From a virus: 64,000 nt of DNA. The stretch spans positions 1 to 64,000 of the IMG/VR virus record IMGVR_UViG_3300032272_000002, one strand, 5' to 3'. This document shows, piece after piece, positions 700 through 53,287 of the stretch. The translations under genes and the position numbers were made by a program. The notes beneath the pieces were generated by a model. The model was not told the origin of the DNA and did not search any database. It saw nothing but the letters and a program-made list of their open reading frames with translations. Every line of letters begins with the position of its first letter. The first letter of the stretch is position 1.

Positions 700-1505
700 T
701 CGTCAAAGTTTCCCAAAATATAGCCGTTGGCGATCATGTCTTTGAGTTCTTCATCCCTCAATTTAGACAATCTTTCAATATCCTCAGCAGCCTCACTGCG
801 TGCATTTTTACTACTTAGTTCTTCAGCGAGGTCAACTAGTGTCTTACGTTCAGTACGTACGTCCTTCAGGCGGTCACGTCGAGACATCTTCAGTTGCTCT
901 AGGCCCTTTTCTCGACCCTTCATGTGAAGGTCGTATTCACGAGCATACTTTTCAGCGGCACCAAGATGTGGCGTGTATCGCGTATCATCCTCTTGGAATT
1001 CGCCATTCTTGGTTTGCTCATGCCACTTCTCTTGCTGCTCCTTACGGTTAAGGGCTTGCAATGCAAGTACCATTTCTAAGACCGCAGCAAATAGAGACTG
1101 CTCTTCGGCTTCAGTAATTGTATCAGTAGAACGAATAACGCTCAAATACTCATCAATGAATAGATCTTTCTCGTCCTGCCCAAAGCTACGGAAGGTTAAT
1201 CTGAAGCGAGCGGTCGATTGTAGTTTAGCCGCAATGAATGTATGACGCTCTTCACGAGTCATCTCATCCAGAGTCTTGTTTGAGGTTAAGATAGCCGTAG
1301 CAGCAGAAGTGGGTGCGGCACCAGCGGCCTGTTGGTCGCGAGCCTGCTTGAGTAGTCTACCTACAGCACGATCTGGGCTTTTAAGATCTTTCCAATTTTC
1401 AGGAAAATCAATAGCCAAACGCTTGGCGATCTCGCTATATGACAAACCATCAGCCGACCACTCCATGGCTAGATTGCGTTCTTCTTGAGAAAAGGTTTTA
1501 GGCAT
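696..1505 (-). CDS. hypothetical protein with N-terminal HTH and coiled coil
   Basis: GLSYSEIAKRL HTH-like segment; overlaps both neighbours. Confidence 0.5.
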   Translation of the reverse strand: MPKTFSQEERNLAMEWSADGLSYSEIAKRLAIDFPENWKDLKSPDRAVGRLLKQARDQQAAGAAPTSAATAILTSNKTLDEMTREERHTFIAAKLQSTARFRLTFRSFGQDEKDLFIDEYLSVIRSTDTITEAEEQSLFAAVLEMVLALQALNRKEQQEKWHEQTKNGEFQEDDTRYTPHLGAAEKYAREYDLHMKGREKGLEQLKMSRRDRLKDVRTERKTLVDLAEELSSKNARSEAAEDIERLSKLRDEELKDMIANGYILGNFDE

Positions 1506-2091
1506 TGTCGTTTAGTACCTCTCGAATAATAGTTCTGATTTGACGCTTGATACGTGCAGGAACCTCATCACCTCTGCCTTCCTTCATGGCGACATAGTGA
1601 TCTAGGAAATTCATTGGAAGAGCAGATTTAATACTCTCGTCCAAAATCCAGGCATCGACATCAAGACCTTCACCGTCTGTGACTTCTACTTCAAGAGAGG
1701 CGGGTGCTCGCAACATAGCTTTCGTTGCCATACTGTTACGATACTGCACAATCTTCTCGCAGCCAATCTCATCAATCACGCAAGTCTTTCGCACTTTATC
1801 CCACAGGGGGCATCTAACGCAGGGAGGGTTATTAGGCACATAAATGCCACGACGCATGTTGTATAAGAAATTCCGCACACAAACTTGTAAGAACTTATAT
1901 GGTGAATTTCCGATACGCGACGAATCGTAGTGCTTCATTACGCGAACACACTCCATCCGAATTTCCTGTGCGATATCTTCGTGGTCCATGCCAGGGATAG
2001 GATAACGCCGTCCTTCAGTATGCACGATAGCCTCAATGACTGGCTGTAGTTCCGCATAGTTGAAGGTTCCACTGGCCTCGGTAAAACTCAT
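1498..2091 (-). CDS. phage sigma-70-like factor (region 2) with Cys-rich insert
   Basis: EDIAQEIRMECVRVMKHYDSSR...YKFLQVCVRNFLYNMRR resembles sigma region 2; CVRC...C...C insert. Confidence 0.65.
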   Translation of the reverse strand: MSFTEASGTFNYAELQPVIEAIVHTEGRRYPIPGMDHEDIAQEIRMECVRVMKHYDSSRIGNSPYKFLQVCVRNFLYNMRRGIYVPNNPPCVRCPLWDKVRKTCVIDEIGCEKIVQYRNSMATKAMLRAPASLEVEVTDGEGLDVDAWILDESIKSALPMNFLDHYVAMKEGRGDEVPARIKRQIRTIIREVLNDNA

Positions 2092-12697: not shown

Positions 12698-13443
12698 ATG
12701 GCTAGTTGGGGCATTAAGAATGCTGCCACATATGCATGTGGCGACACTATAACAATCACGAAGATTGCTTGGTTGCCTATTGTGTGTGATGACAAGCGAA
12801 AGTACTGGCTTGAGAGTGTCGTATACACATATAAGGTGAACTCAGAAGACGCTTTAGAGATGGAGGGATTCACAAGTGGCGAAGTACCCCACTACTCACA
12901 CTGCGATAGTTACGAGAAATTCGCGTGGGAGCTAGTGTCACTACTGCCCCTTCGCACACCTAAGTAACTGAGTAGCTTGGTTTGAAGATTTGGGGTATGC
13001 GTGTTTGCAAACCACCCCCCGCCATTCGGGACTTACATATCCCGTACAGAATGAAAAAACCCCCCACCCCCCTGTCATTATGGCAGAGAGGTGGCGGGCC
13101 AGGAAACAAACACACAGGAAACGTGTTCTTTACATATAGTGAACGATATCTTTAGCAGATTCGCTCAATTGTTTTTTTGCTTTGAGCAATGCACTATAAA
13201 CCGGAGATGTTTCGATATACTGCTCAAGTATCATGTCAAGCGTGTGTGCCATACCGCACACGGTATTCATTGCATGATCCACGTTGGCAGTACATAGGTC
13301 ACTGTCCTTCGTGTGCCTCACGCCCCGCATACCATCGGCCCCTATGCTGGACATATGCGGCACCCTTAGGTCCATGTCCTCCCCGCATACGTAGCACGTA
13401 CCCCTGCGGTGGGCGGGCGGCCCCTGGGCGTAGCACTTGACCA

Positions 13444-13650
13444 CTAGCGGCCCCCCATGATGGCGTCAAGCTCGGCCATGCTGCGGGCCTTGTCGAAGCC
13501 CCTGCGGGCGGGCTTGTTGCTCTTCGTGTCGAGCGTCCGCACGGCGGGAAGCCCGCATGCACGACGGGAGAGGACCTCCTGAGCGTCGGAGAGAGAGATC
13601 GGGCTGCGGAACTTGCCGCCGTTGCCTTTTGTGTTGAGCTTGCTTTGCAT
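13444..13650 (-). CDS. small basic hypothetical protein
   Basis: Minus-strand ORF below a TTGCAT...TATACT promoter. Confidence 0.55.
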   Translation of the reverse strand: MQSKLNTKGNGGKFRSPISLSDAQEVLSRRACGLPAVRTLDTKSNKPARRGFDKARSMAELDAIMGGR

Positions 13651-13733
13651 GATGTTGTTTCCTGTTTCCGTTTCCTGAATCTGCTAGAGTATACCCCAGG
13701 CTAGGGGATATGCAAGGGAAAACCCCTTTATTT

Positions 13734-13886
13734 TTATCGCCCCATGCGGCAGGCAACTTCTTCCGCCTCCGTACGTGCCTCCTGCTCGGTCATACGCCAC
13801 ACGAACACGAAGCACTGTCCTGCGACTTCGATGCTGACCTTGACGTTACCATGGAGGGCGGGCTCGATTGTGATGTTCGTTTCCAT
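13734..13886 (-). CDS. 50-aa hypothetical protein not in the ORF track (METNITIEPAL...RMGR)
   Basis: Translated by hand; a GATAAG -10-like box sits just before the ATG, as for neighbouring genes. Confidence 0.55.
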   Translation of the reverse strand: METNITIEPALHGNVKVSIEVAGQCFVFVWRMTEQEARTEAEEVACRMGR

Positions 13887-14097
13887 AGTACTCTTATCGG
13901 CATACGTGCCCCTATGCTGTAGTACTAAATCGGATTTATCACAGCGATAAATAGAGAAATATATACATACCCTAGGTGTGCGTGTACTGCCCCGTATGCC
14001 CGCGTGGGCCAGGCCAGCGTGGCTTAGCTACGTGCAAAATAATATAGGCCCATACAGGGCGGGGCACATAGGCCCCTGCCCCTGCTAGGCCCCTGCC

Positions 14098-14331
14098 CTA
14101 CAGGTCAATATCCTCGGCCATAGCGTAGGTGTCCGTGGTGACCCAACCCTCCTCGATACCCTCGGGACCGTACACTACGGCGGGCCCGTTGTATCCGTGG
14201 CGGGCCGCTGCCAGGAAGGCCGCATGCGGCACGTTGCCTTCGTCCGTGGTGATGATCTCGGTCGGAGCATCGGGGGCGAGGGGGAGGCCGTCCAGGACCA
14301 CGATGTACGTTGCTTTCTTGTTCGTTTCCAT
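14098..14331 (-). CDS. hypothetical protein, leaderless
   Basis: GATAAT-ACAGGT-ATG. Confidence 0.6.
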   Translation of the reverse strand: METNKKATYIVVLDGLPLAPDAPTEIITTDEGNVPHAAFLAAARHGYNGPAVVYGPEGIEEGWVTTDTYAMAEDIDL

Positions 14332-14530
14332 ACCTGTATTATCGGCTATCGGGACAGGAAACCGTAGGACAAACTTGGAAATCTAGCATAGAAATAAATA
14401 CCCTGCTGAGAGGCCCTGTACTGCCCCGTATGGGATTATCGGCCCGGCCCGCGTGGCTTAGCTACGCATAAAATAATTGGGCCAAAAACAGGCCGCCCGG
14501 AGGCGGCCTGCGAGGCCCGTAGGCCCTAGC

Positions 14531-15148
14531 TCAGCGGGAAACTTTTCCCCAGGGGAGGCCCCAGTTCTGGGCACATTTCGGCCCGTAGCCTACGGAAAGA
14601 CTTTCCGGGGTGGAAAGCTCGATCTGGCAGAACCGGCAGGAGCCCAATTCCAGGCCGGAAGAAATTGCGTAGTTCTTGGGATCTTGAGCGAAAGTCGCCA
14701 AAAAGGCGAGATCGAGATCCTTGAAGTTCCTTCCGGGAACGAATTGCCCCTCAGGGGTGATGTACCCGAAATACTTTCCGGGGTAGCTTCCCTGGGCTAC
14801 GTGGATCGAGCCTGCGTTCCGGGAGTGGATTCCCGCGAGGGAAAACTTTGCCTGCGGGAAGATCATTTTCGGGCGTTTCATTCCCTTGGCCGTAGCGTGA
14901 GAGAACAGGGAAACGATTTCCTTGCAGCTCGGAAGCTCCTGAATTGCCTCAGGGGCGACTTTGGGGGCGAGCGTGGCCACGGCCAACTTGTGGACCCAGG
15001 GCCACTGGCGGTCGCTCAGGCGGCCCTTGCGGGCGTACTGCGTTGCAAGGGACAGGGCGAAGGTCGAGGTGAGCTTGGAAACGATTTCCACGGCTTCCTG
15101 GTTCGTGAGGTCGCTCGTGAAAGTTTCGCCTTTGAGAGTGTACTGCAT
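14531..15148 (-). CDS. DUF6011-like zinc-finger protein
   Basis: C-terminal CRFCQIELSTPESLSVGYGPKCA. Confidence 0.7.
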   Translation of the reverse strand: MQYTLKGETFTSDLTNQEAVEIVSKLTSTFALSLATQYARKGRLSDRQWPWVHKLAVATLAPKVAPEAIQELPSCKEIVSLFSHATAKGMKRPKMIFPQAKFSLAGIHSRNAGSIHVAQGSYPGKYFGYITPEGQFVPGRNFKDLDLAFLATFAQDPKNYAISSGLELGSCRFCQIELSTPESLSVGYGPKCAQNWGLPWGKVSR

Positions 15149-15342
15149 TGCTTTCCTTGTTTGGTTTCCGTCCCCGCTCCATTGCAGGGTACGATATAAT
15201 ACCATAGAATACTAGAAAGGCAAACGGATAATATCTATCTTACAATTCCCTTACAATCGCTCAGATCGCTCTGTGCTCGCGTATGCTGGCAGTACCGCAA
15301 AACTGCGTGGCTTAGCTACGTGCAAAATCAGGGAGGCCCGCA

Positions 15343-15364
15343 GGGGCGAGCCTGAGCCCGCCCC
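15343..15364 (-). terminator. GC-rich hairpin GGGGCGAGCCTGAGCCCGCCCC; variants near 15956, 16668, 17452, 17921, 22387
   Basis: Inverted repeat just after minus-strand stop codons, followed by a T-run on the minus strand. Confidence 0.6.
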
Positions 15365-15371
15365 GTGGCCC

Positions 15372-15713
15372 CTAGCCCCAATGGATCGGGCGGCCCGCAG
15401 CTAGTGCGTCCAAGGCCAACCGCAGCATAGCGGAGGCATAGTAGGAAATTTGTTCCTGGCTCAGCCCGTAGTCGATGATCCGACAGACCGACTTGACGCC
15501 CTCGGAAGAAATTTCCACCCCGTGGTTGTCCGTGGTTTCCTTCGTGTGCCCCACGGGATCGGCAACCGCTAGGCTACTGATAACGGTCTGGGCCTCGACC
15601 TCACCGCAGTAGTCGAACGGCACGCCGATCAGCTCGCAGACCGTCTCTGCGTTGCGGTTGGATACGTTCAAGCCATCGACCCCCGAACCTTCGAAATTGA
15701 ATGTCACGCTCAT
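15372..15713 (-). CDS. hypothetical protein, leaderless
   Basis: GATAAT-ATACACC-ATG. Confidence 0.65.
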   Translation of the reverse strand: MSVTFNFEGSGVDGLNVSNRNAETVCELIGVPFDYCGEVEAQTVISSLAVADPVGHTKETTDNHGVEISSEGVKSVCRIIDYGLSQEQISYYASAMLRLALDALAAGRPIHWG

Positions 15714-16774
15714 GGTGTATATTATCGGCTATTGAGCCTGGAAACGTGAGATCATAATAACTGTCTTACAATCCCTTTACATCCTCTCAGACGCTCTGTA
15801 CTGCCCTGTGCGGGCATATCTCCGGATAGGTGTCCCAGGGCCTATTCAGGGAGAAACGCGATTTCGGCAATATTTTCCACCGCTGTACTGCCGCGTGCTG
15901 GCACTTCGCCCGTGCCCGCGTGGCTTAGCTACGGCCATAAAAATACAGCCCCAGAGGGGCGAGCCTAGGGGGCCTGAGCGGCCCGCTAGACCCCTTCCTC
16001 GTCGGAACATTCTTCGCCTGCCAGCAACATGATCCCGATGCCGACGAAAATCATTCCGACCCACCACGGGGCATCGAATAGGACCATGGACATGATGCCG
16101 AAGTAGATGTAGAACATTTTTCCTAGTTCCCTTCGATCCATTTTTTCCAGTCGGCATCCGTCCAGAGAGCGGTGCAGACGGGAGGAACCGGGAATTCTTT
16201 GCCGGAAAGAATGGCGTTCAATTCGGCGGGAGTGTCGGCGGTACGGGCGGAAGTTTTTTCGACCTCACCAGAAGCGTGGTGGATCTCGAAGGGAATTTCT
16301 TTCATAGTGTTAGCTTTGGAGGCTTTTCAGGGTGGCGAGGGCAAGCGTCAGAGCGTAGACCATAGGGCCGCCCAGGAAGACCAGGACGAGCACGTAGTTC
16401 GGAGTCGCGTGCAGTAGGCTCTTGATTGCTTGCTTCATAGTATACTTATCGGCACCACGGCCCCAGAACTATAGTGCTAAACCGAGAATCACGACGAAAA
16501 GAGCAGAGAGCCAAAACAGAAATAATTGCTTCATACCATAGTATACCGCACGACTTGAGCGAATGCTATCTATTTACTCTTTCTTTACAAAGCCCTGTAC
16601 TCGCTTGTGCTGGCACCTAGGCCCGGCCCGCGTGGCTTAGCCACGGGCAAAAAATGAAACCCCCGTAGGGGCGAGCCTAGGCCCGCTCCAGGATCGCAGA
16701 GACGATTCCCAGTATGAAAATGATTCCGCCTACCACCAGGCATCCCAGGAGGTAGGCGGAAGATTCTTCGTCGT

Positions 16775-17275
16775 TCATTTCAGGAGGACGAAATTTTCTC
16801 CCTTGAAAGAGATTCCTTGGATGGAAGAGAGAGCGTAGTCGCGAACGAGAATTTCTTTCTCGGTCTTCTGGCGGCTGCTAGTGCTACGCTTGGGAAGGAA
16901 CGGGGCCACATCGTCCTGGGAAAGACTTTCGCCTTTACCGTTCTGGTACTCGTGGCCGAGAGCTTTTTCGACTTTCGTCTCCAGGTAGATTTTTCCCTTG
17001 TGCTGGACCAGCATGGGGGAAATCTTTTCACCCCAGGCACGGGGGGCCGACTCGAAATCGGCGGGAACATTGTTCTCGCGGGACCGTTGGCGGTTTACCG
17101 CGTTGTCATACTGGAATCCCAGCGTGACGTTGACGCGGGAGACCTTGAACACGGGTCCAAGGGTGTTTCCCGTCTTCCGGAGGCGGGCATCGGTTTTCGT
17201 GATGATCGTGGCGAACGTCGCACCACGGACAGAGTTCAGGAGGGCGAGAAGCTCGCCGGTCGTGATTGCTTTCAT
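16775..17275 (-). CDS. hypothetical phage protein (MKAITTGELL...)
   Basis: TGG-TATTAT-TCTGGC-ATG leaderless start; the longer ORF-track start runs through a repeat element. Confidence 0.7.
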   Translation of the reverse strand: MKAITTGELLALLNSVRGATFATIITKTDARLRKTGNTLGPVFKVSRVNVTLGFQYDNAVNRQRSRENNVPADFESAPRAWGEKISPMLVQHKGKIYLETKVEKALGHEYQNGKGESLSQDDVAPFLPKRSTSSRQKTEKEILVRDYALSSIQGISFKGENFVLLK

Positions 17276-17480
17276 GCCAGAATAATACCATGGTGAGGGC
17301 GAGAAGCAAACGGATATCGGCCTTCTTACGTGCGTCTTACAAAGTCGCCGTGAAATAGTTTCATACCTCTGAGAGCCTCTGTACGCTCGCGTATGCTCGC
17401 CGGGGGCGGGCGTGCGTGGCTTAGCTACGGGCGAAAAAAGATAACGCGAGAGGGGCGAGCCTGAGCCCGCCCCGTCCATC

Positions 17481-17768
17481 CTAGGCCGCTTCCAAGCCGG
17501 AAGTATCTTCCGCCAGCAGGGCCATGTAGGTGGAAACAACTTCCGCACGGAACTTCGTTCGCCCGAACCCGTGACGCTGGCAGATATCGTCAATTTCTTC
17601 CCACAGGGAAACATTGATCGCATAGACCTCCTCGAAGGAAATTTCTTCCGAGATCATAGCGTCCCCGTGAGTGTGAAAAAGCTTCCACGCGAGAGGGCCA
17701 GCAAAATGGGCGAGTTCCGTACCGTTGATTCCGTCTTCCATATAATACTCTTCGGCACAATGCCCCAC
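17481..17768 (-). CDS. hypothetical protein
   Basis: Fills one repeat-delimited module. Confidence 0.55.
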   Translation of the reverse strand: MGHCAEEYYMEDGINGTELAHFAGPLAWKLFHTHGDAMISEEISFEEVYAINVSLWEEIDDICQRHGFGRTKFRAEVVSTYMALLAEDTSGLEAA

Positions 17769-17956
17769 TAGACTATAGGGGAATCGGTGAGTTTACGTTT
17801 CCCTTACAAACGAGAAATAGGAAAATAGTACATACACCAGGAACGCCGTGGGCCGCCCCGTATGCTCGTTTCCCGCCCGCCCGCGTGGCTTAGCTACGCA
17901 CAAAATATGGGAGGCCCGTAGGGGCGAGCCTGAGCCCGCCCCGTGGCCCCTAGGGC

Positions 17957-18223
17957 CTAGGTGATGTCGCCCGGTTGGAAAACAATGACGTTCCCGAAAA
18001 TGGGCTGCCCGTAGTTCGACCGGGAACAAAGTGCCGATGCCACGGAATTGATTTCCGGGTCATTTTTGCACAGTGCCTCTTCGTCGCACCAGAGTTCTTT
18101 TCCCTCATCGGTGGGAACAATTTGCCCCATCCGGGCGTCGATGGCTTCGTTCCACGTCTGGAAACCGTTTCCGACTTCCCGCTCTTCGGACGTGCCATCG
18201 GTAAGAATTACCCTGCGAATCAT
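17957..18223 (-). CDS. DUF3846-like protein
   Basis: LWCDEEAL...INSVASAL...IFGNVIV pattern. Confidence 0.65.
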   Translation of the reverse strand: MIRRVILTDGTSEEREVGNGFQTWNEAIDARMGQIVPTDEGKELWCDEEALCKNDPEINSVASALCSRSNYGQPIFGNVIVFQPGDIT

Positions 18224-18613
18224 TTTCTATTCTCCTGTCAGTTCCTGGAAAGATGTTCCGTGCAGCATGGTAGGATCTTCCACCGCACGGCGTGCAATGT
18301 TTTCCGCCGCCTTGTCAAGCTCGACCGGGCAGATTTTTCCGTTCACCCAGAACCGCTTGATGCGGGAAAGCATTTCAATGGCGGAAAGGGCTTCGGGCTC
18401 TTCGTTGGGGGTCGTTTCGCTCGTTTCCATGCCAAACAATACCACGGTGGGGAATTGATGTCGGCAAAATCCCCTTTTCTAATTGTTCGAGAATTGTAAA
18501 CGCCAAAACGCCGTGTACTGCCCCGTACGGGCACGGCCCACGGGCCCGCGTGGCTTAGCTACCTGCGAAATTCGAAACGCCGTCAGAAGCGAGGAGAGGC
18601 CGTCAGAAAAGAC

Positions 18614-18642
18614 TTGACGCCCGCCGAAAAGCGGGATATACT
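18614..18642 (+). promoter_or_regulatory. sigma70-type promoter pointing against the minus-strand genes (similar promoters at 19387-19415 and 23424-23451)
   Basis: TTGACG-17nt-TATACT; TTGACA-17nt-TATACT; TTGACT-16nt-TATACT. Confidence 0.7.
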
Positions 18643-18766
18643 TCGGTGTTGGAAGTTTGTGCCGGAACTATGTTCCCTGCCATTTTGGCATGGGAAATAT
18701 ATTCTCTTACAAAACTCTTACAATGTTAAGGGAATGTAAAGGCAGTATTTTCCCATATATATACGT

Positions 18767-18790
18767 TAAGGGAAAATCTCACACTTCTAC
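18767..18790 (+). repeat. TAAGGG-N-CTTCTA dispersed motif (8 copies)
   Basis: TAA at 18767, 19517, 23592, 26901, 26935, 26983, 27591, 48868; CTA 20 nt later (21 nt at 27591). Confidence 0.75.
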
Positions 18791-18995
18791 GGTTTCTAGG
18801 ATACGTCCTAAAGATATAGGTAGATAGGGGCTCCCTCGACCGTGCGTGCCGGTGATGACCCACGCGGGGAGCCTGTAGGTTCCAACGGCTCCCGCCTCCC
18901 TACTTACAAGGTTGGGACTTACGATTCACCCGCTTGATCCCTTCCGTTTCGGTACTTTGCAGCGTTCAGCGTGCAGGATACCGCGATCCCCTATT

Positions 18996-19193
18996 CTACA
19001 GTAGCTCTTCGGGAAGGTCTCCCTCCGCGACCCAAGTCTCTAGCAGGGTCTCGGCACACTCTTCGGGGTCCACCCCATCGTCGAAGAGGTCTCGCACCAT
19101 GACGAGATCGGGCATATCGTCGGCGTCCATGCCGATCTTGTGGGACACGATGAGGTTGACTTGCTTCCACCACGCTTTGAATGTCGTTTCCAT
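18996..19193 (-). CDS. acidic hypothetical protein, leaderless
   Basis: TGG-TACTAT-AGAGC-ATG. Confidence 0.65.
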   Translation of the reverse strand: METTFKAWWKQVNLIVSHKIGMDADDMPDLVMVRDLFDDGVDPEECAETLLETWVAEGDLPEELL

Positions 19194-20102
19194 GCTCTAT
19201 AGTACCACAGTATAGGCGAGAGGTCGAGAGAATCTGGAAATATGATATAGAAATAAGTACCACACCTCAAGGCCGCTGTACTGCCTTGTGAGCGAGGATC
19301 TCCGAGGCCCACGTAGCTAAGCTACCTGCGTGAAAATTGACGCCCACACGGGGCCGTACAACCCGCTCCAGCAGTCTGCTTTTCGCTTGACAGCGTGGCC
19401 CCGGTGCGGTATACTTAGGCAGTTCTTTCCCGCGAACTATGTTCCTGGGTAATTTTTTCTTTTACAGGGTTTTTACAAGGTAAAGATTCTGTAAATATAT
19501 TCTTATATATGTATGTTAAGGCGAAAACACAAACTTCTAAGGTTTCTGGGTTGACATAAAAAAGCGGACCAGCCTGGGGAGACTGGCCCGCCATCGGAAA
19601 GGAGGAGAGAGAAACCTAGGGACCTGCGTTGCTCGGGTTACTGACCCCCGTTGTTGTGGGTGTCGATGTCAGCGATGATCTTTTCCATGGCTGCCCATGT
19701 GGGCATCTGCGGAAAGTGTACTTGGTGCCCGCCATCGTTCGTGATGTAAAAGCCTTGGCTTTCTTGCGGGCCGTCGAAGACTCGTAGCACGCCGAGAACT
19801 TTCTTCTCGGTGCGATAGAACCGCTTGGTGAACCGGAAGATCCTTCCCTTGACCCTGGACTGTACCAGTTCGCGTTGTTCGATCATTTCTTGCATGTTTA
19901 GTCCTCGTATACGGGACTGTCGTCCCATTCGCTGGCCCAGTCGTCCAGCTCCTCATCGGTGATCGGCTCAGGCTCGGGGGCGTTCTCGTGGGCGTCGATA
20001 CGCTCCAGCTCCTCGGCCATCTCCTCGTACCAATCCCCCATGATTTCGTTTCTCTCGTTCATGGTTGAATAGTACCACGCTATCGCGTGATGTCAAGCGA
20101 TC

Positions 20103-20408
20103 TTACCAGGAAACGGTGATGATGTAATCACCCTCGGGGATGATGTCACGACGTACCATTTCGAGCAGGAAGGTGCGAGGCCCCCACATCTGCTTACGAC
20201 CCTGCGACTGTACCCATTCCATTAGGCGGGTATCTTCCTGTAGCTCCTGAATGGCCTGTGCCTTCGTGATGCCGTCGAACTCGTGCGAGGTATCGTTACC
20301 GCACTCCATGTCGCAAGGCATTTCATACGGAAAGCCCCACTCTTCCTGGATCTTTCTTTCCAGGTCGCCATAGTCCACGCGATGAACGGATTTCGTTTCG
20401 ATTCTCAT
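20103..20408 (-). CDS. hypothetical protein
   Basis: Coupled ORF in a minus-strand operon. Confidence 0.6.
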   Translation of the reverse strand: MRIETKSVHRVDYGDLERKIQEEWGFPYEMPCDMECGNDTSHEFDGITKAQAIQELQEDTRLMEWVQSQGRKQMWGPRTFLLEMVRRDIIPEGDYIITVSW

Positions 20409-20779
20409 AGTGAGTTGATGTTCAGGATGTCGGAAGGAAAACCACCGTCCCGCAAGTGCTTGCGGGCTAGTCTCTTTGCGAACCGCCCAAGTATAGCACG
20501 GGACTGCATGCGGCGTCGGAGTGCGTCCGCATTTACTCCGCGACCCGTGGTAGGGTTACCGTTACGCTCCAGCCACGCGAGCCTATTCGCTTGCGTGTTC
20601 AGCTCCATGAGCTTATTGTAGGCAGCGGTAGCCTTGGCCCCATCGCTCATCTTGAGCGGGGATCGGTAGCGGGGTGTCGCGTGGACTTGGCAAGGCAGGT
20701 AGCAGGTGCCACAGTATACCCAGCCGCTACCGTCAATCGGAAGATCCTTCTTGCAGCGTTCGCACTTATCGAATTGCAT
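20405..20779 (-). CDS. hypothetical protein with N-terminal CxxC...CxxC zinc ribbon
   Basis: CERC...CGTC. Confidence 0.55.
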   Translation of the reverse strand: MQFDKCERCKKDLPIDGSGWVYCGTCYLPCQVHATPRYRSPLKMSDGAKATAAYNKLMELNTQANRLAWLERNGNPTTGRGVNADALRRRMQSRAILGRFAKRLARKHLRDGGFPSDILNINSL

Positions 20780-20959
20780 GATATTCTACCACGTTGAACC
20801 CTACCGGGTTGTGTGCCGTCAGCTTTTCAGCGTCCTTTTCTGCTTCCTCGCGAGAGTCATAGATTTTGCCAGGCTCTACACCCGTTGCCTCGCACGCTGG
20901 CCCACAGTAGGGCCAAGCCGGGGAGCGGGTTGATTTGTGGATCGAAAACCTCATGACGC

Positions 20960-21166
20960 CTAAAGTATACCCTCTAATTCGAAGGCTGCTTCCTTTCTTG
21001 CGATTTCTTTGTCCACAAGAGGTATAAGCCTTTGCACCTCTTCGGTCCAGTGCCTCAGCCTGTTTATCGCCCAGTGAGTGTCCATATACTGGACAGCGGT
21101 GCGACGGTACTCTTCCGCTCGTGACTTCTCAGCCACCGCGTGGCGATATTGCTCGGTGATAGTCAT
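20960..21166 (-). CDS. hypothetical protein with FELEGIL tag variant
   Basis: Ends AAFELEGIL*; the only tagged gene on the minus strand. Confidence 0.65.
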   Translation of the reverse strand: MTITEQYRHAVAEKSRAEEYRRTAVQYMDTHWAINRLRHWTEEVQRLIPLVDKEIARKEAAFELEGIL

Positions 21167-22067
21167 GATCTCGGTCCCAGCTTCAAGCTTAGCAGGGTCT
21201 GGCACGTCGGGCAAGTCTTGATGCCCTTTTCCTGTGGCACTTGGTGCCCCTTGGGGCATTCGATAGCGATGACTACTCTCATGCTGTTATTATAACGCTC
21301 TCCGAGCGTTTGTCAACTCAAAAATCCCAACCAATGGCCAGAAATTTCTTCCAGAAACAGATTTTGAGACTCATGGAATATTTGCAGGCAACAATTTCAA
21401 TACCCACTTTTTCTATGCCAGTGTCTCGCCACCAGATCCAGGGAATTAGACGGTCGATTTTCATATCATATGTATAACCTTGAGCGTAGCGAAATGCAAG
21501 CTAGAAATAGAAGAAATATATACCACACATAGGACGGCGTGTACTCGCTCGTGTGCGAAGATCGCGGCGGCCAACGTGGCTAAGCCACGCACTAAAAACT
21601 ATCGTGCAGCATAGGGCCGTATGGCCCCGCTGGTCAGTCTGCTAGCGACGTTGAATCGCGACATTCTTTCCGGTCGCGTACGCTGCTTTGCCTAGGTCGG
21701 TGTTGTGGCCGGAAAGCCCGTACACTTGGCCCTTGTACTCGATGGCCCCAGGGAGCTTCCTAGGGTCGTTCTCGGGCATCGGAACGTCGATGTAGTCCCC
21801 GAAGAAACCCGTGTACTCGGCCAGAACGGGAATTGCGTTGGCGATTGCTTTTGCTTTCATGCTAGTATAATACCGCACTAGGCTAGAAATGCAAGGACAA
21901 AATAAAAAGGCCCGCCAGGAATATTTCACCTTGACGGGCCTACCGGCGGGATTGGGCGTTGACCCGTGTACCCTAACAGAGCCCGGCGTACGACCGCTCT
22001 CCGTGTATTGTACCGAACCCATAGGGCCGGGTGCTCCCCGCTTGCGTCGATACGTGCTCTCGTTGTT

Positions 22068-22230
22068 TGGAGGCTCTGGCAGGATTCGAACCCGCGACGG
22101 GTGGACATATGCTTCGTCAAGCGACCCACCCGATACCATCTTCGCAACCTACATCGTCAGGCTTGCGGCCCTCGTGACTTCTGATCCCCCAGTAGAGCTA
22201 TAGTTCCTGGGTTCGGTGCGATTCAGAGCC
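22068..22230 (-). ncRNA. 163-nt tRNA-like RNA (acceptor stem, T arm and CCA; non-tRNA interior)
   Basis: 5' GGCTCTG pairs with CAGAGCC-T-CCA; T arm GCGGG-TTCGAAT-CCTGC; TATTCT -10 box just upstream. Confidence 0.7.
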
Positions 22231-22605
22231 ACCATAGAATACCATCGTATGCGGGAGATGCGAGAACCAAATGGATTCTTTGAATAGAAATAAGTGCATA
22301 CCCTGGAACGCTCTGGGCTCGCGTATGCGGGAGAATGGCGGCGGCCCGCGTGGCTAAGCTACCTGCCCAAAAAATGAGGGCGATACGGGCGAGCCTAGGG
22401 CCCGCCCGGTGGCCGCTAGGCCCGAGCTACGTGGAAACGATTTCCAGCCACGATTTCGAGTCCGTGGCCGTCCAGTCCTCCCGGAAAGCTTTTCCTTGTC
22501 CGATGGACCAGGCAAGTTCTTCCGTGGGGGAATCGAATTCCCAGTAGGTAAGACTTTCCTCATCGTCCAGCCAGAGAATGTAAAACCTATATCTTTTCAT
22601 GGTTT

Positions 22606-23238
22606 TTAGTGGGCGTTGTAGTTGACGGAAGGAACTTCCGCATCCCAGCAGGCTCGGCAATTTTTGCACTCGTTACCTTGCTCGCTGGCGGGACACTGGA
22701 AACCGTTTCCGGCCCCGACCGTGGACTGAGGGTAGGAAGAATCTTCCACCGCTTCCTGTCCGATCATGGCCATGGAAATTCTTACCACAAGGTTGGAAGG
22801 AATTTCACCCTCGAATGAGCGAACAATCTTCCGCTCCCGTGTCGGGAGCCAGAACCGGATGGTGGGAAGTTCTTTCGCGATCTCGACGATCTTGGAAAGA
22901 TGTTCCACACTCTGGAGGTCGCCGCTATCGTGCCAGCGGAAAACTCTTCCTGCCCCCGTAGCCTTGCGGTACTTCTTTCCGATCAGCTCGACCATCAGGG
23001 AAACCCATTCCGGCTTGGAAATCGCTTCCAGTCGCCTTTCCTGGGCAGCTTTCACCACCGGAAAAACGTACATACCCTTGAGTGCGTAGCAGGAAGAACA
23101 TACCGTGTTCGCTTGCTTCGCCAGGATCTGACCGAGAAGACATTTCCACGCGGGGATCCCGTATGCGAAACCGGGCATTTTACTCGGCTTGGACAATCCG
23201 CCCACGGCGGCCTCAAGCTCTTTTATCGTTCGCTTCAT
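22606..23238 (-). CDS. gp88-like phage protein (Cys-rich, radical-SAM-like)
   Basis: SKMPG, CSSCYA, FRWHDSGD, FWLPTRE, CPA...CKNCRACW. Confidence 0.75.
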   Translation of the reverse strand: MKRTIKELEAAVGGLSKPSKMPGFAYGIPAWKCLLGQILAKQANTVCSSCYALKGMYVFPVVKAAQERRLEAISKPEWVSLMVELIGKKYRKATGAGRVFRWHDSGDLQSVEHLSKIVEIAKELPTIRFWLPTRERKIVRSFEGEIPSNLVVRISMAMIGQEAVEDSSYPQSTVGAGNGFQCPASEQGNECKNCRACWDAEVPSVNYNAH

Positions 23239-23796
23239 GCCCAAAGATACCGCACTAGGGGCGAGATGCAAACGGGAAATGAGAAAATAGAATAGAAATA
23301 TCTTCCACGTCCAGGAGCCTCTCTCCTCGCCTCTCCGCGAGGCGGCCCCGGCCCGCGTGGCTAAGCTACCTGCGAAAAATGAAGTGCCAGCACGGACGAG
23401 TACAGGCGATCTGGAGAATTCCCTTGACTCTTGCCGTGGGAAGGATATACTTGGGTATGAAGACTCTTCTCTGCCAGACTGGCAGGGTAGTAGTTTCCAT
23501 GCCGTTTTGGCAGGGGAAAATTTTTCCTGCCGTTATGGCGGGAAGTTTTTTCCGGGAAAAGATTGCCGGGTGTACCCTTATATATATACGTTAAGGGGGA
23601 TTCTCACACTTCTACGGTTTTCTACTCTTCGACCTTGCCGCGACACTTGTTGCGGTCAGCTTCCTTCTTGCGGTCAGTGAAGGTACGGGCACGGCCCCGC
23701 GTAGCGGCTGCCATGCCCGACCCCGTTCGTTTCACACGTTCTGCGGCGTCAGGCAGTTGCTTCTTTGCTTTCTTCTTCATGACACCGAATAGTACC

Positions 23797-24093
23797 CTAC
23801 TTTTTGAGTTGGGGCAAGGCTTCTTCTACGATTTTCATGCAGCGAGCCTCGACTTCCTCCATGCGTGCCAGGATCTCCGGGCCAGTGATCTCCAATCCGG
23901 TCTCGCCCAGGATCGTGTCAGGGAGCCGCTGGGCGGCGTGCTTGAGTTGTGCGAAGTAACCCGTGATGACCCATCGTTCGGCCTTGGGCTGGCCTGCGGT
24001 GCGTCCACGCTTGGCGATCTCGCCGCCAGCTTCGAACCGCTCGATGACCCAGTTGTTTTCGTCCGCTTTGCGGATCCTGAATTTCTCTTTCAT
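23797..24093 (-). CDS. hypothetical protein, leaderless
   Basis: TATCAT-TCTATC-ATG. Confidence 0.6.
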   Translation of the reverse strand: MKEKFRIRKADENNWVIERFEAGGEIAKRGRTAGQPKAERWVITGYFAQLKHAAQRLPDTILGETGLEITGPEILARMEEVEARCMKIVEEALPQLKK

Positions 24094-24141
24094 GATAGAA
24101 TGATACCCTGGCCAAGCGAGTTGGCCAGGGCTTTCTTGGAT

Positions 24142-24357
24142 TTATTCGTCAGACGGTCCCCAAGCGAACTCGGCATTGCCCGCCACGATGGTCCAGTGGC
24201 CTGCATCATTGGCCACGGCATCCTTCTCCATCAGGTCGGTGGTGATGGCCCAGGTGATGAGGACCAGCATGAAGGCCAGCAGGGCGGCTATGACCGCAAC
24301 TACGATGCCATTCTCGAAGCCAGCCTTGCGAACGTTATCAGCGGTGTCTATATTCAT
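24142..24357 (-). CDS. small membrane protein
   Basis: One long hydrophobic helix. Confidence 0.6.
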   Translation of the reverse strand: MNIDTADNVRKAGFENGIVVAVIAALLAFMLVLITWAITTDLMEKDAVANDAGHWTIVAGNAEFAWGPSDE

Positions 24358-24721
24358 CTTCTTTTCTCAGGTGTTCTCGTTTCTCAACTATTCTAGTATA
24401 ACATGGTGAGCTGAGAATGCAAACAAAAAAGGGCCGGGAATTTCTTCCCGACCCCGTGTGGTCAGTCTGGCTTCCAGAGCCCTACATATTCTAGGAACAT
24501 TCCCAGAAAACCGAGTCCGAAGATCATCAGTGTGATAACCAGCAGAATCCAGCCGGTTGCCTTCCAATTGTCAACGTTCTCGTCGGAGTCTGGAGCAGAA
24601 AAAAAGGACTGGTAAACTTGGGGCGGTGCTCCCCGTGAGGAGCCCCGTTTCCATTGGATTGAACCCATTGGTACCTGTAGAGTACCCCCGCCCCTGGGGA
24701 GAGGCGAGGGCTTTCTGGGAT

Positions 24722-25720
24722 TTAGTTCCCCGTCTTGTTGGCCACGAAAGCGTCCAGGAGGCCCAGGGCTCGCTTCTCGCGGCTGCCCCTGGTACCCTCC
24801 AGGAGACCGATCATGATGTCGTCAGCGTCGAGCTTGGACTTCTCAGCGGTGTAGTGCGAGCCGACCCAGGTCACCCCGTGGTACATGTCGGCGGCGGACT
24901 TGCCGAAGGTGCCGAATCGCGGCATGTTGAAGGCATCCAGGAAAGCGGCCCGGAGGTTACGCTTCTGTGCCTTGAGTTCCTCGCCCGTGCGGATCTTGAG
25001 CAGGGTATCGACGAACACCTCGGCCTCGCCGTGGCTCATCGGAACGTCGCCCAGCGTACCCAGGCGATTGGCCAGGGTTTGCATGAGCTTCCGAAGCTCG
25101 GCCCAGCGGCTCATGGCCAGGGCGTACTTGTCTCGCACGTCGCCACGGTGGACGATGCGGAACCCGCTGACCTCCGCGATAGCGGTGTAGAGCGAACTGG
25201 ACACGGTACGCTCCAGGAAGAGCATGGCGGCGGCAGAGCCTCGCCCGTGGTAGTTGCGAGCCACAAGGTAGGCCCGGTAGACCTCGCCCAGACGCTCCTG
25301 GAAGGGGTCAGCGTCGGTCAGGTTGAGACGCAGGGCGATAGCCTCCACGTTCTCCACGCATCCCTGACGAATCTTGAAGGCCGAATCCGGAACGGCCAGA
25401 CCTTCCTCGATGAAGGGCGTGAGATCCTTCGCCATGTCCAGGGGAGAAATTTCCCCATACTGACGCGAGACGGTCATGGGCGAAACAACTGCCCGATCCG
25501 AGTCCCGCTGGATCACGTACTGGTTTTCGACACGCTCGGAGCCGAGGACCGGGGTAGAGTTCTGGATCTGCCAGCTAGGAATGCTGACCTGAACTTTCTT
25601 CACCCCGTAGTTCATTTCCCTGGCAGCAAGGAATTCCGGCAGGTTGTCGATCTCCTCGGTGTTGTGACCGAGAGAGAAGAAGGATGCTCCACGGGAGCGG
25701 AAGCGGTCTTGAATGCTCAT
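24722..25720 (-). CDS. DUF932-like phage/plasmid protein
   Basis: YLVARNYHGRGS...IVHRGD...MYHGVT...H pattern of DUF932. Confidence 0.65.
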   Translation of the reverse strand: MSIQDRFRSRGASFFSLGHNTEEIDNLPEFLAAREMNYGVKKVQVSIPSWQIQNSTPVLGSERVENQYVIQRDSDRAVVSPMTVSRQYGEISPLDMAKDLTPFIEEGLAVPDSAFKIRQGCVENVEAIALRLNLTDADPFQERLGEVYRAYLVARNYHGRGSAAAMLFLERTVSSSLYTAIAEVSGFRIVHRGDVRDKYALAMSRWAELRKLMQTLANRLGTLGDVPMSHGEAEVFVDTLLKIRTGEELKAQKRNLRAAFLDAFNMPRFGTFGKSAADMYHGVTWVGSHYTAEKSKLDADDIMIGLLEGTRGSREKRALGLLDAFVANKTGN

Positions 25721-25820
25721 TTTCTTTTTTCCTCTTGAAAGGTTGTTGGGTGGCCCCGTCTTTCGGAACCACCCAATCATACCACGTTCAGGTTTGGAAG
25801 CAACTAGAAAACCGGGTTTC

Positions 25821-38559: not shown

Positions 38560-38633
38560 GGGCACGTAGCATTGTGGAATGCAGCCGCCTCTAAAACGGT
38601 AAGAAGCGAGTTTGACTCTCGTCGTGCCCTCCA
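38560..38633 (+). tRNA. amber suppressor tRNA (anticodon CTA)
   Basis: GGGCACG/CGTGCCC acceptor, GCAT/ATGC D stem, GCCGC-CTCTAAA-ACGGT, T-CCA. Confidence 0.8.
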
Positions 38634-50872: not shown

Positions 50873-51112
50873 ATGAACTATAGAAATTTAAGACAAAAGG
50901 CTCGAAATAGCAAGCTGACTCCTGATGAAGAGAAAGAGTATCACTTGCTTAATCAAGAGTATCACAAAGTGACTCGCAAGTGGTTCAAGCGTAACGGTCG
51001 CGAAATGGCACAGGGTTTTTCAAAACTAGAGGCAATCAAAATGCGTCTTGGTATTGTTGAATCTGAGCTTGATCGCGATGATCCCGATTTCAGTCTGGGT
51101 GGAGCACTATGA
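50873..51112 (+). CDS. hypothetical protein with FSLGGAL tag
   Basis: Ends PDFSLGGAL*. Confidence 0.75.
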   Translation: MNYRNLRQKARNSKLTPDEEKEYHLLNQEYHKVTRKWFKRNGREMAQGFSKLEAIKMRLGIVESELDRDDPDFSLGGAL

Positions 51113-51435
51113 ATGAAGAAACGCATGTGATCGACTATCACCCTCCGATTGAAGGTGCCGCCAAAGATCGTACGGTACAGGGGGAAAAGTATGACTGTGA
51201 CAATATTGACCACTATTCTGAGTGGGCGTACGCTATTGCTTTACGAGAATTCGAGATCGGCCAAGAGGTTACTGAGGACGAACTACGTGAAGCTCTGGAG
51301 TTGGCGAAAACTCAACAGGTCATTGACAAGCTCTGCGAACAAGGTTATGTTGAAATGGTGTGGGATGGAGAAGAGCCCACGTACTATGTAACCGAAGCTG
51401 GACAGAAACATGCCGAAAACAACCCATCTCTCTAA
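51109..51435 (+). CDS. winged-helix-like protein
   Basis: IDKLCEQGYVE...YYVTEAG wing motif. Confidence 0.5.
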   Translation: MNEETHVIDYHPPIEGAAKDRTVQGEKYDCDNIDHYSEWAYAIALREFEIGQEVTEDELREALELAKTQQVIDKLCEQGYVEMVWDGEEPTYYVTEAGQKHAENNPSL

Positions 51436-52420: not shown

Positions 52421-52499
52421 CTGAGTGTGGGGAAGTTTGGCCTATCCCGGTTCCCTTGGAAGGAACAGACCGCTGGTTCAAATCCAGCCACTCAGACCA
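52421..52499 (+). tRNA. tRNA-Pro(TGG)
   Basis: GTTCC-CTTGGAA-GGAAC; CCA. Confidence 0.9.
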
Positions 52500-52505
52500 A
52501 TCAAC

Positions 52506-52595
52506 GCAGGCGTGTGCAGAGAGGCCGATTGCACCTGGCTTTTAACCAGACGAGCGAAAGCTCCACCGTAGGTTCGACTCCTACCGCCTGTACCA
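52506..52595 (+). tRNA. tRNA-Lys(TTT) with long variable arm
   Basis: Loop CTTTTAA; GAGC-GAAA-GCTC variable hairpin; CCA. Confidence 0.85.
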
Positions 52596-52612
52596 TTTTT
52601 GAGCGAAGCGAA

Positions 52613-53287
52613 ATGACTGACTTCCACTACGACGTAAGCCTAGACTACGAAACGGACCACAACTGCTCAGAAAGCGGCTGTGACGACGAGGGGATCTGCC
52701 GTTGCGGCACGATCAGTAACGTTCGCGTCGAAAGAGTCGATTCCTGGGATATCGCTCGACACTATCCGACTGGCGATATCATTCACGACTATGCCGTTGA
52801 GCGTCTGATCTCTCGCTTCCGTACGGACGAATTCGACATCGAAGTAGGTGGCGGATATTACGGAGACGAAATCGATGGCGTCACCCTGACAAATGCCGCT
52901 CAAGATTCAATCCATAAGGCACAGGCCCTTATTACGACTGCCGAACAGGTCGAACACTATCTTGCACTAGAAAACGGCGAAGTGCTGCACAAGCACCGCG
53001 ACCGTCAATGGGAGCATGTCAAGATTCCTATTGACGACGTGATTCCCGGCAAGAACCGTGCTGGACTCGATAAGAAGCAGATTGCTTTCTATCGTGATAA
53101 GTTTAAGTATGATAAAATTACGCCGACTGTTCTCTGTGAAAAGAAAGGACATGATAAATACGTGCTGATCGATGGCTACCACCGCTATCACGCGGCTTTG
53201 GAAGCCAACAAGAAAAAGATCGACGTTATCTTCTTCGTGTCGGACGCGAGGAAAGTGGCCGACTTCGAGTTGGGCGGTGCTCTTTGA
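52613..53287 (+). CDS. ParB/sulfiredoxin-like domain protein with FELGGAL tag
   Basis: YVLIDGYHRYHAA; Cys-rich N-terminus; ends ADFELGGAL*. Confidence 0.75.
   Translation: MTDFHYDVSLDYETDHNCSESGCDDEGICRCGTISNVRVERVDSWDIARHYPTGDIIHDYAVERLISRFRTDEFDIEVGGGYYGDEIDGVTLTNAAQDSIHKAQALITTAEQVEHYLALENGEVLHKHRDRQWEHVKIPIDDVIPGKNRAGLDKKQIAFYRDKFKYDKITPTVLCEKKGHDKYVLIDGYHRYHAALEANKKKIDVIFFVSDARKVADFELGGAL

Follow-up and report, generated by a model that had tools for sequence, protein, structure and literature searches.

What does a short palindrome do when it recurs twelve times, always in one orientation, between the early genes of an uncultured phage? The window analysed here is a 64,000-nt stretch of DNA, positions 1-64,000 of the 169,742-bp IMG/VR virus record IMGVR_UViG_3300032272_000002. 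The genes of its 13.1-25.8 kb region lie on the minus strand, and twelve intergenic units are set among them, each combining a 13-bp palindromic core, GTRGCTWAGCYAC, with two short boxes close by. We consider it somewhat probable that the units work at the level of DNA, each as a cis-regulatory module for the early promoter that comes next and as a composite site that a putative sequence-specific protein would occupy.

Results

Twelve units share an exact core and two boxes one helical turn apart

The palindromic pattern CGTRGCTWAGCYAC occurs at 12 sites between 14018 and 23370, where 0.14 hits are expected from shuffles (the 24 raw hits are these 12 sites counted on both strands); the twelve sites first reported in an earlier note on this DNA are therefore real. 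All 12 carry the 13-bp core without a single change, at 14019-23369 in one 9.4-kb region, even though their flanks have diverged. A whole-genome scan, which that note had proposed as a check, confines the sites to this region, with zero copies of the core in the rest of the 169,742-bp record. When up to 3 mismatches were tolerated, the 12 exact copies were joined by a background at 2-3 mismatches that does not exceed chance and lies outside the units; the core thus has no decayed copies. Apart from a tRNA T-loop word, the core is the genome's most over-represented 10-mer. A search of the region with Rfam gave one chance-level match only, and a literature search with the core sequence gave unrelated primers only. 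All 12 cores contain GCTNAGC, which we take to be the recognition sequence of restriction enzymes of the BlpI/Bpu1102I type.

Read on the gene (minus) strand, a unit runs in the order hairpin, A/T tract, core, linker, two boxes, A/T-rich stretch, promoter and ATG. The A/T tract reaches 94% A/T at -16 to -12 relative to the core, GCGGG is conserved on the promoter (3') side of the core, and a GC-rich linker of 19 nt separates the core from two SYACRS boxes. These boxes start at +27/28 and +37/38, a 10-bp period, and together make up what had been described as a single 16-nt box. That box is present, but its consensus is looser than had been implied, with 5 forward matches at up to 3 mismatches; the reported spacings hold, at 35 nt in 10 units and 34 nt at 15306, with a degenerate box at 23356. 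Within the 16-nt box the conserved part is GYACAS (minus strand), which in 9 of the 12 units begins 37-38 nt away from the centre of the palindrome. A weaker mirror image of the inner box is found at -33/-32 in about a quarter of units, and there are two extra box copies, one box-only at 15797-15812 and one inverted at 19345-19360. Five units also have TGTAAG-N5-7-GTAAG direct repeats between box and promoter (minus strand, approximate positions 15230-15260, 15790-15830, 16590-16600, 17320-17350 and 17800-17830).

All units point the same way, at intervals of 434-1007 bp and one of 2263 bp, as the earlier note had stated. It had also called them intergenic, which is correct once leaderless starts (below) are used: open reading frames (ORFs) that seem to cross a unit then shrink, for example 16775-17623 to the conserved gene 16775-17275. 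Its further claim that each unit follows a terminator-like hairpin and precedes a promoter is borne out throughout for the promoter, which is of sigma70 type, and in at least five units for the hairpin, where a GC-rich stem with a T-run passes the terminator scan. The 'A-run' of the original description is likewise present, but on the minus strand it is a T-run, and in those units it forms the U-tract of the hairpin.

Relatives keep the scaffold, and one subclade has a second core

Exact-pattern scans found the core in three more IMG/VR phages (G001, 14 sites; G002, 3; G003, 10), each set within 5-14 kb, and in about 20 metagenome contigs with 3-11 sites each; a 5.5-kb contig binned into an alphaproteobacterial metagenome-assembled genome (MAG) has 7. 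After removal of duplicates, this gave 100 distinct units. Core and box keep the same spacing in these relatives, the box standing at +37/38 from the core throughout. Orientation is uniform within each contig, with two exceptions (L038 and L048, 1:1 box counts).

In a G003-like subclade only, a second core, GTAGTATAGACAC, replaces the palindrome on the same scaffold, with the same box and promoter geometry. It is not palindromic or self-complementary, and it is present in 8, 5 and 4 identical copies with no intermediates. Units with this core are interleaved with palindromic-core units (L006 2233-9553; L032; L060).

Units lie at whole helical turns from a distinct class of promoter

The -10 element of the promoter that follows each unit sits only 3-9 nt before the ATG, so that the mRNAs are leaderless. 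Indeed, most early genes of the window (13130-25780, minus strand) and of all relatives (e.g. L004, L005 and L006) are apparently leaderless and without a Shine-Dalgarno sequence, and several of them open with identical codons (Met-Glu-Thr-...). Window promoters take two forms. The first is TTGCWT-N16-18-TAnnnT. In the second, GCCGATAAK or a close variant replaces the -10 element 6-8 nt before a leaderless ATG, with no recognisable -35; promoters of this form are found at 13898, 14343, 15726, 16450 and 17753 (-), and their -10 positions share the helical register of the ordinary promoters. At least five strong leaderless early promoters have no unit (-10 at 21872, 21294, 20074, 24105 and 25792).

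Distances between the centre of the core and the base that opens the -35 hexamer are quantised at about 61, 70-71, 80-81, 90-92 and 100, the window contributing 70, 83, 90, 92, 92, 92, 93 and 113. None of the 65 distances departs by more than 2 bp from 61+10n, although chance would place only 50% so close, and the Rayleigh R at 10.2 bp is 0.65, whereas 5000 random sets reached 0.42 at most. The units are, however, paralogues of one another, so that neither these counts nor the -35 counts below are independent events, and some of the 10-bp steps come from extra copies of the 10-bp box. The 65 distances come from 10 clades with unrelated spacer sequences, and every clade but one has at least two distance classes.

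The promoters differ as well. Leaderless promoters from all loci were scored by the number of matches, out of 6, between their -35 and TTGACA. Those preceded by a core have a -35 of the TTGCWT type, with a mean of 3.65 and a score of at least 5 in 6 of 49, whereas coreless ones mostly have TTGACA or TTGACT, with a mean of 4.67 and at least 5 in 36 of 58 (Fisher p = 1.2e-7). The earlier note had described neither this phasing nor the leaderless starts, the unit-free promoters, the second box 10 bp in and the conservation across the clade.

The twelve modules of the window, with coordinates derived by hand from the core, promoter, start and terminator scans, are as follows.

Module 1: 13884-14043 (-); A/T tract, core 14019-14031, boxes ~13982-13998, second-type promoter GATAAG at 13898, leaderless ATG 13886; terminator-like hairpin directly upstream, 14075-14046
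Module 2: 14329-14477 (-); core 14453-14465, boxes ~14416-14432, second-type promoter GATAAT at 14343, leaderless ATG 14331
Module 3: 15196-15331 (-); core 15307-15319, box offset by 1 nt, -35 TTGCCT 15223-15218 (90 nt from the centre), -10 TATTAT 15201-15196; terminator-like hairpin 15353-15334
Module 4: 15711-15944 (-); core 15920-15932 and boxes, the extra box-only copy, second-type promoter 15726, leaderless ATG 15713
Module 5: 16532-16656 (-); core 16632-16644 (perfect palindrome), boxes, -35 TAGCAT 16568-16563 (70 nt), -10 TATACT; second promoter at 16450 (-), driving ATG 16438
Module 6: 17273-17440 (-); core 17416-17428, boxes, -35 TTGCTT 17309-17304 (113 nt), -10 TATTAT 17287-17282, leaderless ATG 17275 of a conserved 166-aa gene
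Module 7: 17739-17909 (-); core 17885-17897, outer box degenerate, second-type promoter 17753, leaderless ATG 17741; terminator-like hairpin 17931-17912
Module 8: 18428-18574 (-); core 18550-18562, boxes, -35 CCGACA 18464-18459 (92 nt), -10 TATTGT 18441-18436, leaderless ATG 18430
Module 9: 19191-19337 (-); core 19313-19325, boxes, -35 TCGACC 19227-19222 (92 nt), -10 TACTAT 19204-19199, leaderless ATG 19193; the inverted box lies beside it
Unit-free stretch: 19415-21320 (-); strong coreless leaderless promoters, -35 TTGACA, -10 at 21294 and 20074
Module 10: 21462-21600 (-); core 21576-21588 (perfect palindrome), boxes, -35 TTGCAT 21499-21494 (83 nt), -10 TATACA, ATG 21464
Module 11: 22233-22374 (-); core 22350-22362, box degenerate, -35 TCGCAT 22263-22258 (93 nt), -10 TATTCT 22241-22236
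Module 12 (first in the direction of transcription): 23236-23381 (-); core 23357-23369, box degenerate, -35 TTGCAT 23271-23266 (92 nt), -10 TATCTT 23249-23244, leaderless ATG 23238, GP88-family gene

Two further features were seen among the modules. Near-consensus promoters on the opposite strand lie directly behind three cores, at 23424-23594 (+), 19387-19415 (+) and 18614-18642 (+); the first drives a leaderless 45-codon hydrophobic ORF (23457-23594) that has a terminator-like hairpin inside it (23523-23545). These promoters may serve divergent small genes or antisense RNAs. A tRNA T-loop-like 11-mer, GGTTCGAATCC (window ~22082-22092, minus strand), follows the predicted start of module 11 by about 140 nt; ARAGORN and Rfam called no tRNA or tmRNA at this place, and the 11-mer may mark a tRNA-like non-coding RNA.

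Cassettes are probably exchanged around the units

Could the units serve chiefly to exchange genes? No homologue was found in any relative's locus for 20 of the 36 early ORFs of the window, and four related loci (L006, L060, L032 and L016) have common blocks at 98-100% identity that are split by unrelated or rearranged cassettes. Of the internal block ends, which are not independent events, 55% fall within -80 to +140 of a core, against 34% in randomisations (maximum 52%). This is reminiscent of the promoter-early stem-loop (PeSL) cassettes in the hyperplastic regions of T4-like myoviruses, where cassettes recombine with one another to give circular mini-DNAs (Arbiol et al. 2010, PMC2839356; Comeau et al. 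2014, PMC4122927). Like the units described here, PeSLs are composite intergenic elements in which a GC-rich terminator stem-loop is combined with A/T-rich DNA and an early promoter of sigma70 type; they are repeated between small ORFans and lie at the boundaries of indels and replacements between close relatives. However, PeSLs belong to T4-like phages, which this phage is not, and the exact core, the phased boxes and the leaderless promoters in core and coreless classes go beyond them.

By this account, the unit would be mainly portable homology, or the target of a recombination protein, for ORFan cassettes, and any regulation would be secondary. We regard this as unlikely. Homology alone leaves unexplained an exact 13-mer amid drifting flanks, as well as two discrete core alleles, whole-turn phasing to the -35 and linkage to a -35 class. 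Furthermore, the block ends scatter over the whole unit (-93 to +130, chiefly +65 to +130 and -31 to -93) and not at the core, and the tyrosine recombinase, serine recombinase and Y1 transposase families (PF00589, PF00239 and PF01797) are absent from the four genomes, two of whose records are estimated incomplete, while controls were positive. Integron attC sites and REP/RAYT elements come with a cognate tyrosine recombinase or Y1 transposase, in contrast to the situation here. The earlier note's suggestion of a recombination site that shuffles cassettes therefore stands for the whole-cassette differences and for the enrichment of breakpoints at units; it does not stand for the palindrome as the point of crossover. 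The pattern looks like homologous exchange of the PeSL kind and not like site-specific recombination, and the repeated modules would also supply, as a side effect, homology for swapping ORFan cassettes between related phages.

The core probably acts as duplex DNA

A hairpin and a box at fixed spacing, oriented with transcription, could also act in RNA, as a bipartite signal like lambda nut or as a processing site on early transcripts. A possible RNA-binding partner is encoded nearby: a very basic, Arg/Lys-rich protein of 52 aa (pI 10.8; 23622-23780, minus strand) lies directly upstream of the array in all relatives, with 50-82% identity across them and with otherwise only unnamed environmental homologues. 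Positions -4 and +4 of the core are always a purine and a pyrimidine (A.C 50, G-C 25, G.T 17, A-T 8), and RNA could tolerate these mismatches as G.U or A+.C. However, the pair is Watson-Crick in 33% of units, fewer than independence predicts, and RNAalifold, applied to 58 diverse units, paired only the four invariant core pairs, with zero covariation and -0.5 kcal/mol. The second core, which cannot form a hairpin, keeps the same box and promoter geometry without intermediates, indicating that selection does not act on a conserved hairpin. These data fit duplex DNA with two equivalent half-sites, and a second recognition specificity, better than they fit a hairpin. An RNA or single-strand structure had been tried as a reading of the core and was rejected on the -4/+4 pairing statistics and the absent covariation.

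The position of the units points in the same direction. They sit past terminator-like hairpins and ahead of the next promoter, so that most polymerases would never transcribe them, and nothing in an RNA signal would call for integral helical turns up to the -35 that follows. Lambda nut sites are transcribed ahead of the terminators that they override, and their hairpin is kept by compensatory change; neither holds here, and no boxA-like sequence was seen in the unit alignments. We therefore think an RNA-level signal quite improbable.

About equally doubtful is a structural or topological role, in which the units would be roadblocks or insulators, gyrase or nucleoid-protein sites (BIME/RIP-like), nick sites, or the DNA-entry or protection signal put forward in the earlier note. 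Their placement between tandem transcription units, directly past terminators, would suit such a role, as would their GC-rich build, which is partly dyad-symmetric and includes a central conserved site as well as an A/T tract, their single orientation and their clustering in the early region. Yet an insulator or entry signal predicts neither phasing to the -35 nor a link to its quality, and at least five early transcription units have no unit. Moreover, the MAG into which one phage contig was binned (G004, which may not be the true host) has no core copies outside that contig, and the core is not multi-copy in 400 genomes of the same class; this would argue against a host nucleoid-protein site. 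The genomes sampled were likewise negative for a host transcription-factor regulon, whose site would be expected in many copies on the host chromosome. The composite core-plus-box site is not repeated in any of 185,579 species genomes.

Finally, we judge it highly improbable that the core is itself a second promoter, whether of the N4 hairpin kind, used by an injected polymerase, or one recognised by a phage sigma-like protein. Its 5-6 bp stem and 3-nt loop recall N4 early promoters, three sigma-like proteins are encoded, and the two discrete core alleles resemble promoter specificity classes. But N4 promoters need a perfect 5-7 bp stem with a 3-nt loop, extruded on the template strand, and a giant virion RNA polymerase, whereas here the stem has a non-Watson-Crick pair in 67% of units, the second core is no hairpin, and a giant polymerase is absent, the largest ORFs encoding a tape-measure protein of 1704 aa and an adhesin of 1694 aa. 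Furthermore, no -35/-10-like pair is conserved at 16-18 nt spacing, the G003-like phages with two core types have no more sigma genes, and the leaderless ATG would end up inside any transcript begun at the core. Readings of the core as a sigma54, ECF-sigma or extended -10 promoter were rejected, as alignments checked by eye contained no element conserved at the right spacing.

The phage and the search for a binding protein

The ends of the virus record carry an exact 126-bp direct repeat (genome 7-132 = 169617-169742). The record is thus probably a complete, circularly assembled genome, despite its label as linear and 83% complete, and because the contig ends overlap, no physical end is defined. 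It is a phage of bacteria, and its gene set includes a DnaE-type polymerase, a class II ribonucleotide reductase, rIIA and a T4-type terminase. The terminase is about 25% identical to those of cultured phages (at most 26%, Bacillus phages) and rIIA about 30%; a cultured-phage megablast with the region gave no match, leaving this phage without a close cultured relative, and single-protein locus searches in IMG/VR gave none either. Among its 28 tRNA genes is one with a CUA anticodon (amber suppressor type; window 38560-38633, plus strand).

Three genes resemble the sigma70 family. The two outside the window (genome 69972-70508, plus strand, and 115106-115792, minus strand) have regions 2 and 4, while the one within it (1498-2091, minus strand) has a sub-cut-off match to region 2 only. 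Relatives have two or three such genes each, and their number does not follow the presence of the second core.

Searches of about 25 early ORFs with Pfam and PHROGs gave only domains of unknown function (GP88, DUF932, DUF6011 and DUF3846), and no integrase was found in the phage. Among the small ORFs there is one weak winged-helix match (51109-51432), which is not conserved in relatives. The 166-aa early protein (16775-17275, minus strand) is 61-68% identical in relatives; its predicted fold (pLDDT 77) is a small beta-barrel with insertions that weakly resembles Sm/Hfq/WYL-like barrels (Z 5.5-6.9, values that chance arrangements also reach).

Discussion

A two-site protein-DNA contact, as the earlier note had proposed, fits the evidence best. 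Among the three functions that it had offered, an operator or activator for early promoters now comes first, given the helical phasing, the sub-consensus -35, the symmetric purine/pyrimidine degeneracy and the lack of an RNA fold. From these features, and from the anatomy and conservation of the units and their link to a promoter class, we infer that a protein binds, what it might be and the sign of its effect. We propose that the module comprises the A/T tract, the 13-bp palindromic core with its 3' GCGGG, and the two SYACRS boxes one helical turn apart, and that its binder would be a sequence-specific protein, most likely a phage-encoded dimer. The module always lies at whole helical turns from the -35, and a bound protein would therefore face RNA polymerase, across one to five extra turns, and would set the activity of a distinct early promoter class. 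The sign that we prefer is upstream activation of the sub-consensus TTGCWT promoters, which would make them a 'delayed-early' class beside the factor-independent TTGACA promoters; timed repression instead is almost as likely.

Several observations weigh against a regulatory module of this kind. As the units are paralogous copies, their phasing and -35 association could be partly inherited, and some of the 10-bp steps stem from the copy number of the 10-bp boxes. A simple activator would usually bind closer to the start site than -96 to -148, where the core stands, and the second core allele lacks palindromic symmetry. In addition, the search for a binding protein yielded no candidate: neither an XRE helix-turn-helix nor an HU/IHF protein is present, a ParB_N match at 52427-53287 is sub-threshold (E = 0.002-0.07), and a batch Pfam search of 80 small window ORFs gave no classical DNA-binding domain apart from the weak winged-helix match.

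A more elaborate version of the regulatory module can be sketched, tentatively, although we would not expect it to hold in every part. Here, a DNA-binding family that has gone unrecognised would read the core and phased boxes and act on the host RNA polymerase from 10-14 turns upstream as an early switch private to this clade; at least two specificities would split the leaderless early genes into sub-classes, and the modules would double as cassette joints.

Parallels to the proposed module exist in well-studied regulators. Class I activator sites include those of CRP at -61.5, -71.5, -82.5 and -92.5 and the Fis sites upstream of rrn P1. As here, these are dyad-symmetric sites on the polymerase face at integral turns, with an A/T-rich upstream element and a sub-consensus -35; however, the core of this phage lies much further upstream (~-96 to -148), its sequence is unrelated, and its activating role is putative. 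The KorB O_B operators of IncP plasmids, twelve 13-bp palindromes at varied distances, offer a similar picture of about a dozen such sites that act from a distance on a set of promoters, but their sequence is different and strict phasing and accessory boxes are not KorB features; an operator array of the KorB/ParB type would also come with a ParB-family protein that has an N-terminal CTPase domain and a helix-turn-helix, and the sub-threshold ParB_N match is the only one in this phage. Stoperators of cluster A mycobacteriophages are 13-bp oriented intergenic repressor sites, asymmetric and placed in the transcribed DNA of temperate phages. They resemble the units in being many 13-bp intergenic copies in one orientation relative to transcription, yet our main core is palindromic and upstream of promoters, and neither an integrase nor an XRE-type repressor was found. 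Archaeal two-class intergenic repeats are likewise conserved, located at the starts of transcription units, associated with promoter elements and presumed to control transcription; these are long and A/T-rich, whereas the units combine GC-rich DNA with a short exact core and belong to a bacterial phage that has a DnaE-type polymerase.

To our knowledge, the timing of the early 'host-takeover' regions of large phages, which are rich in uncharacterised genes, has been worked out mainly in T4, T7 and SPO1. The element described here is a precise, testable handle on such a region: an exact 13-bp site, a natural second allele, a geometric rule of whole turns and an associated promoter class. Since the promoters are of ordinary sigma70 type, the system could be rebuilt in a laboratory host, although the phage itself is uncultured, and used to fish out the binder. 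It also extends to an unrelated phage lineage the idea, drawn from PeSLs, that regulatory cassettes double as recombination joints, and so suggests that plastic regions of phage genomes may share this design more generally.

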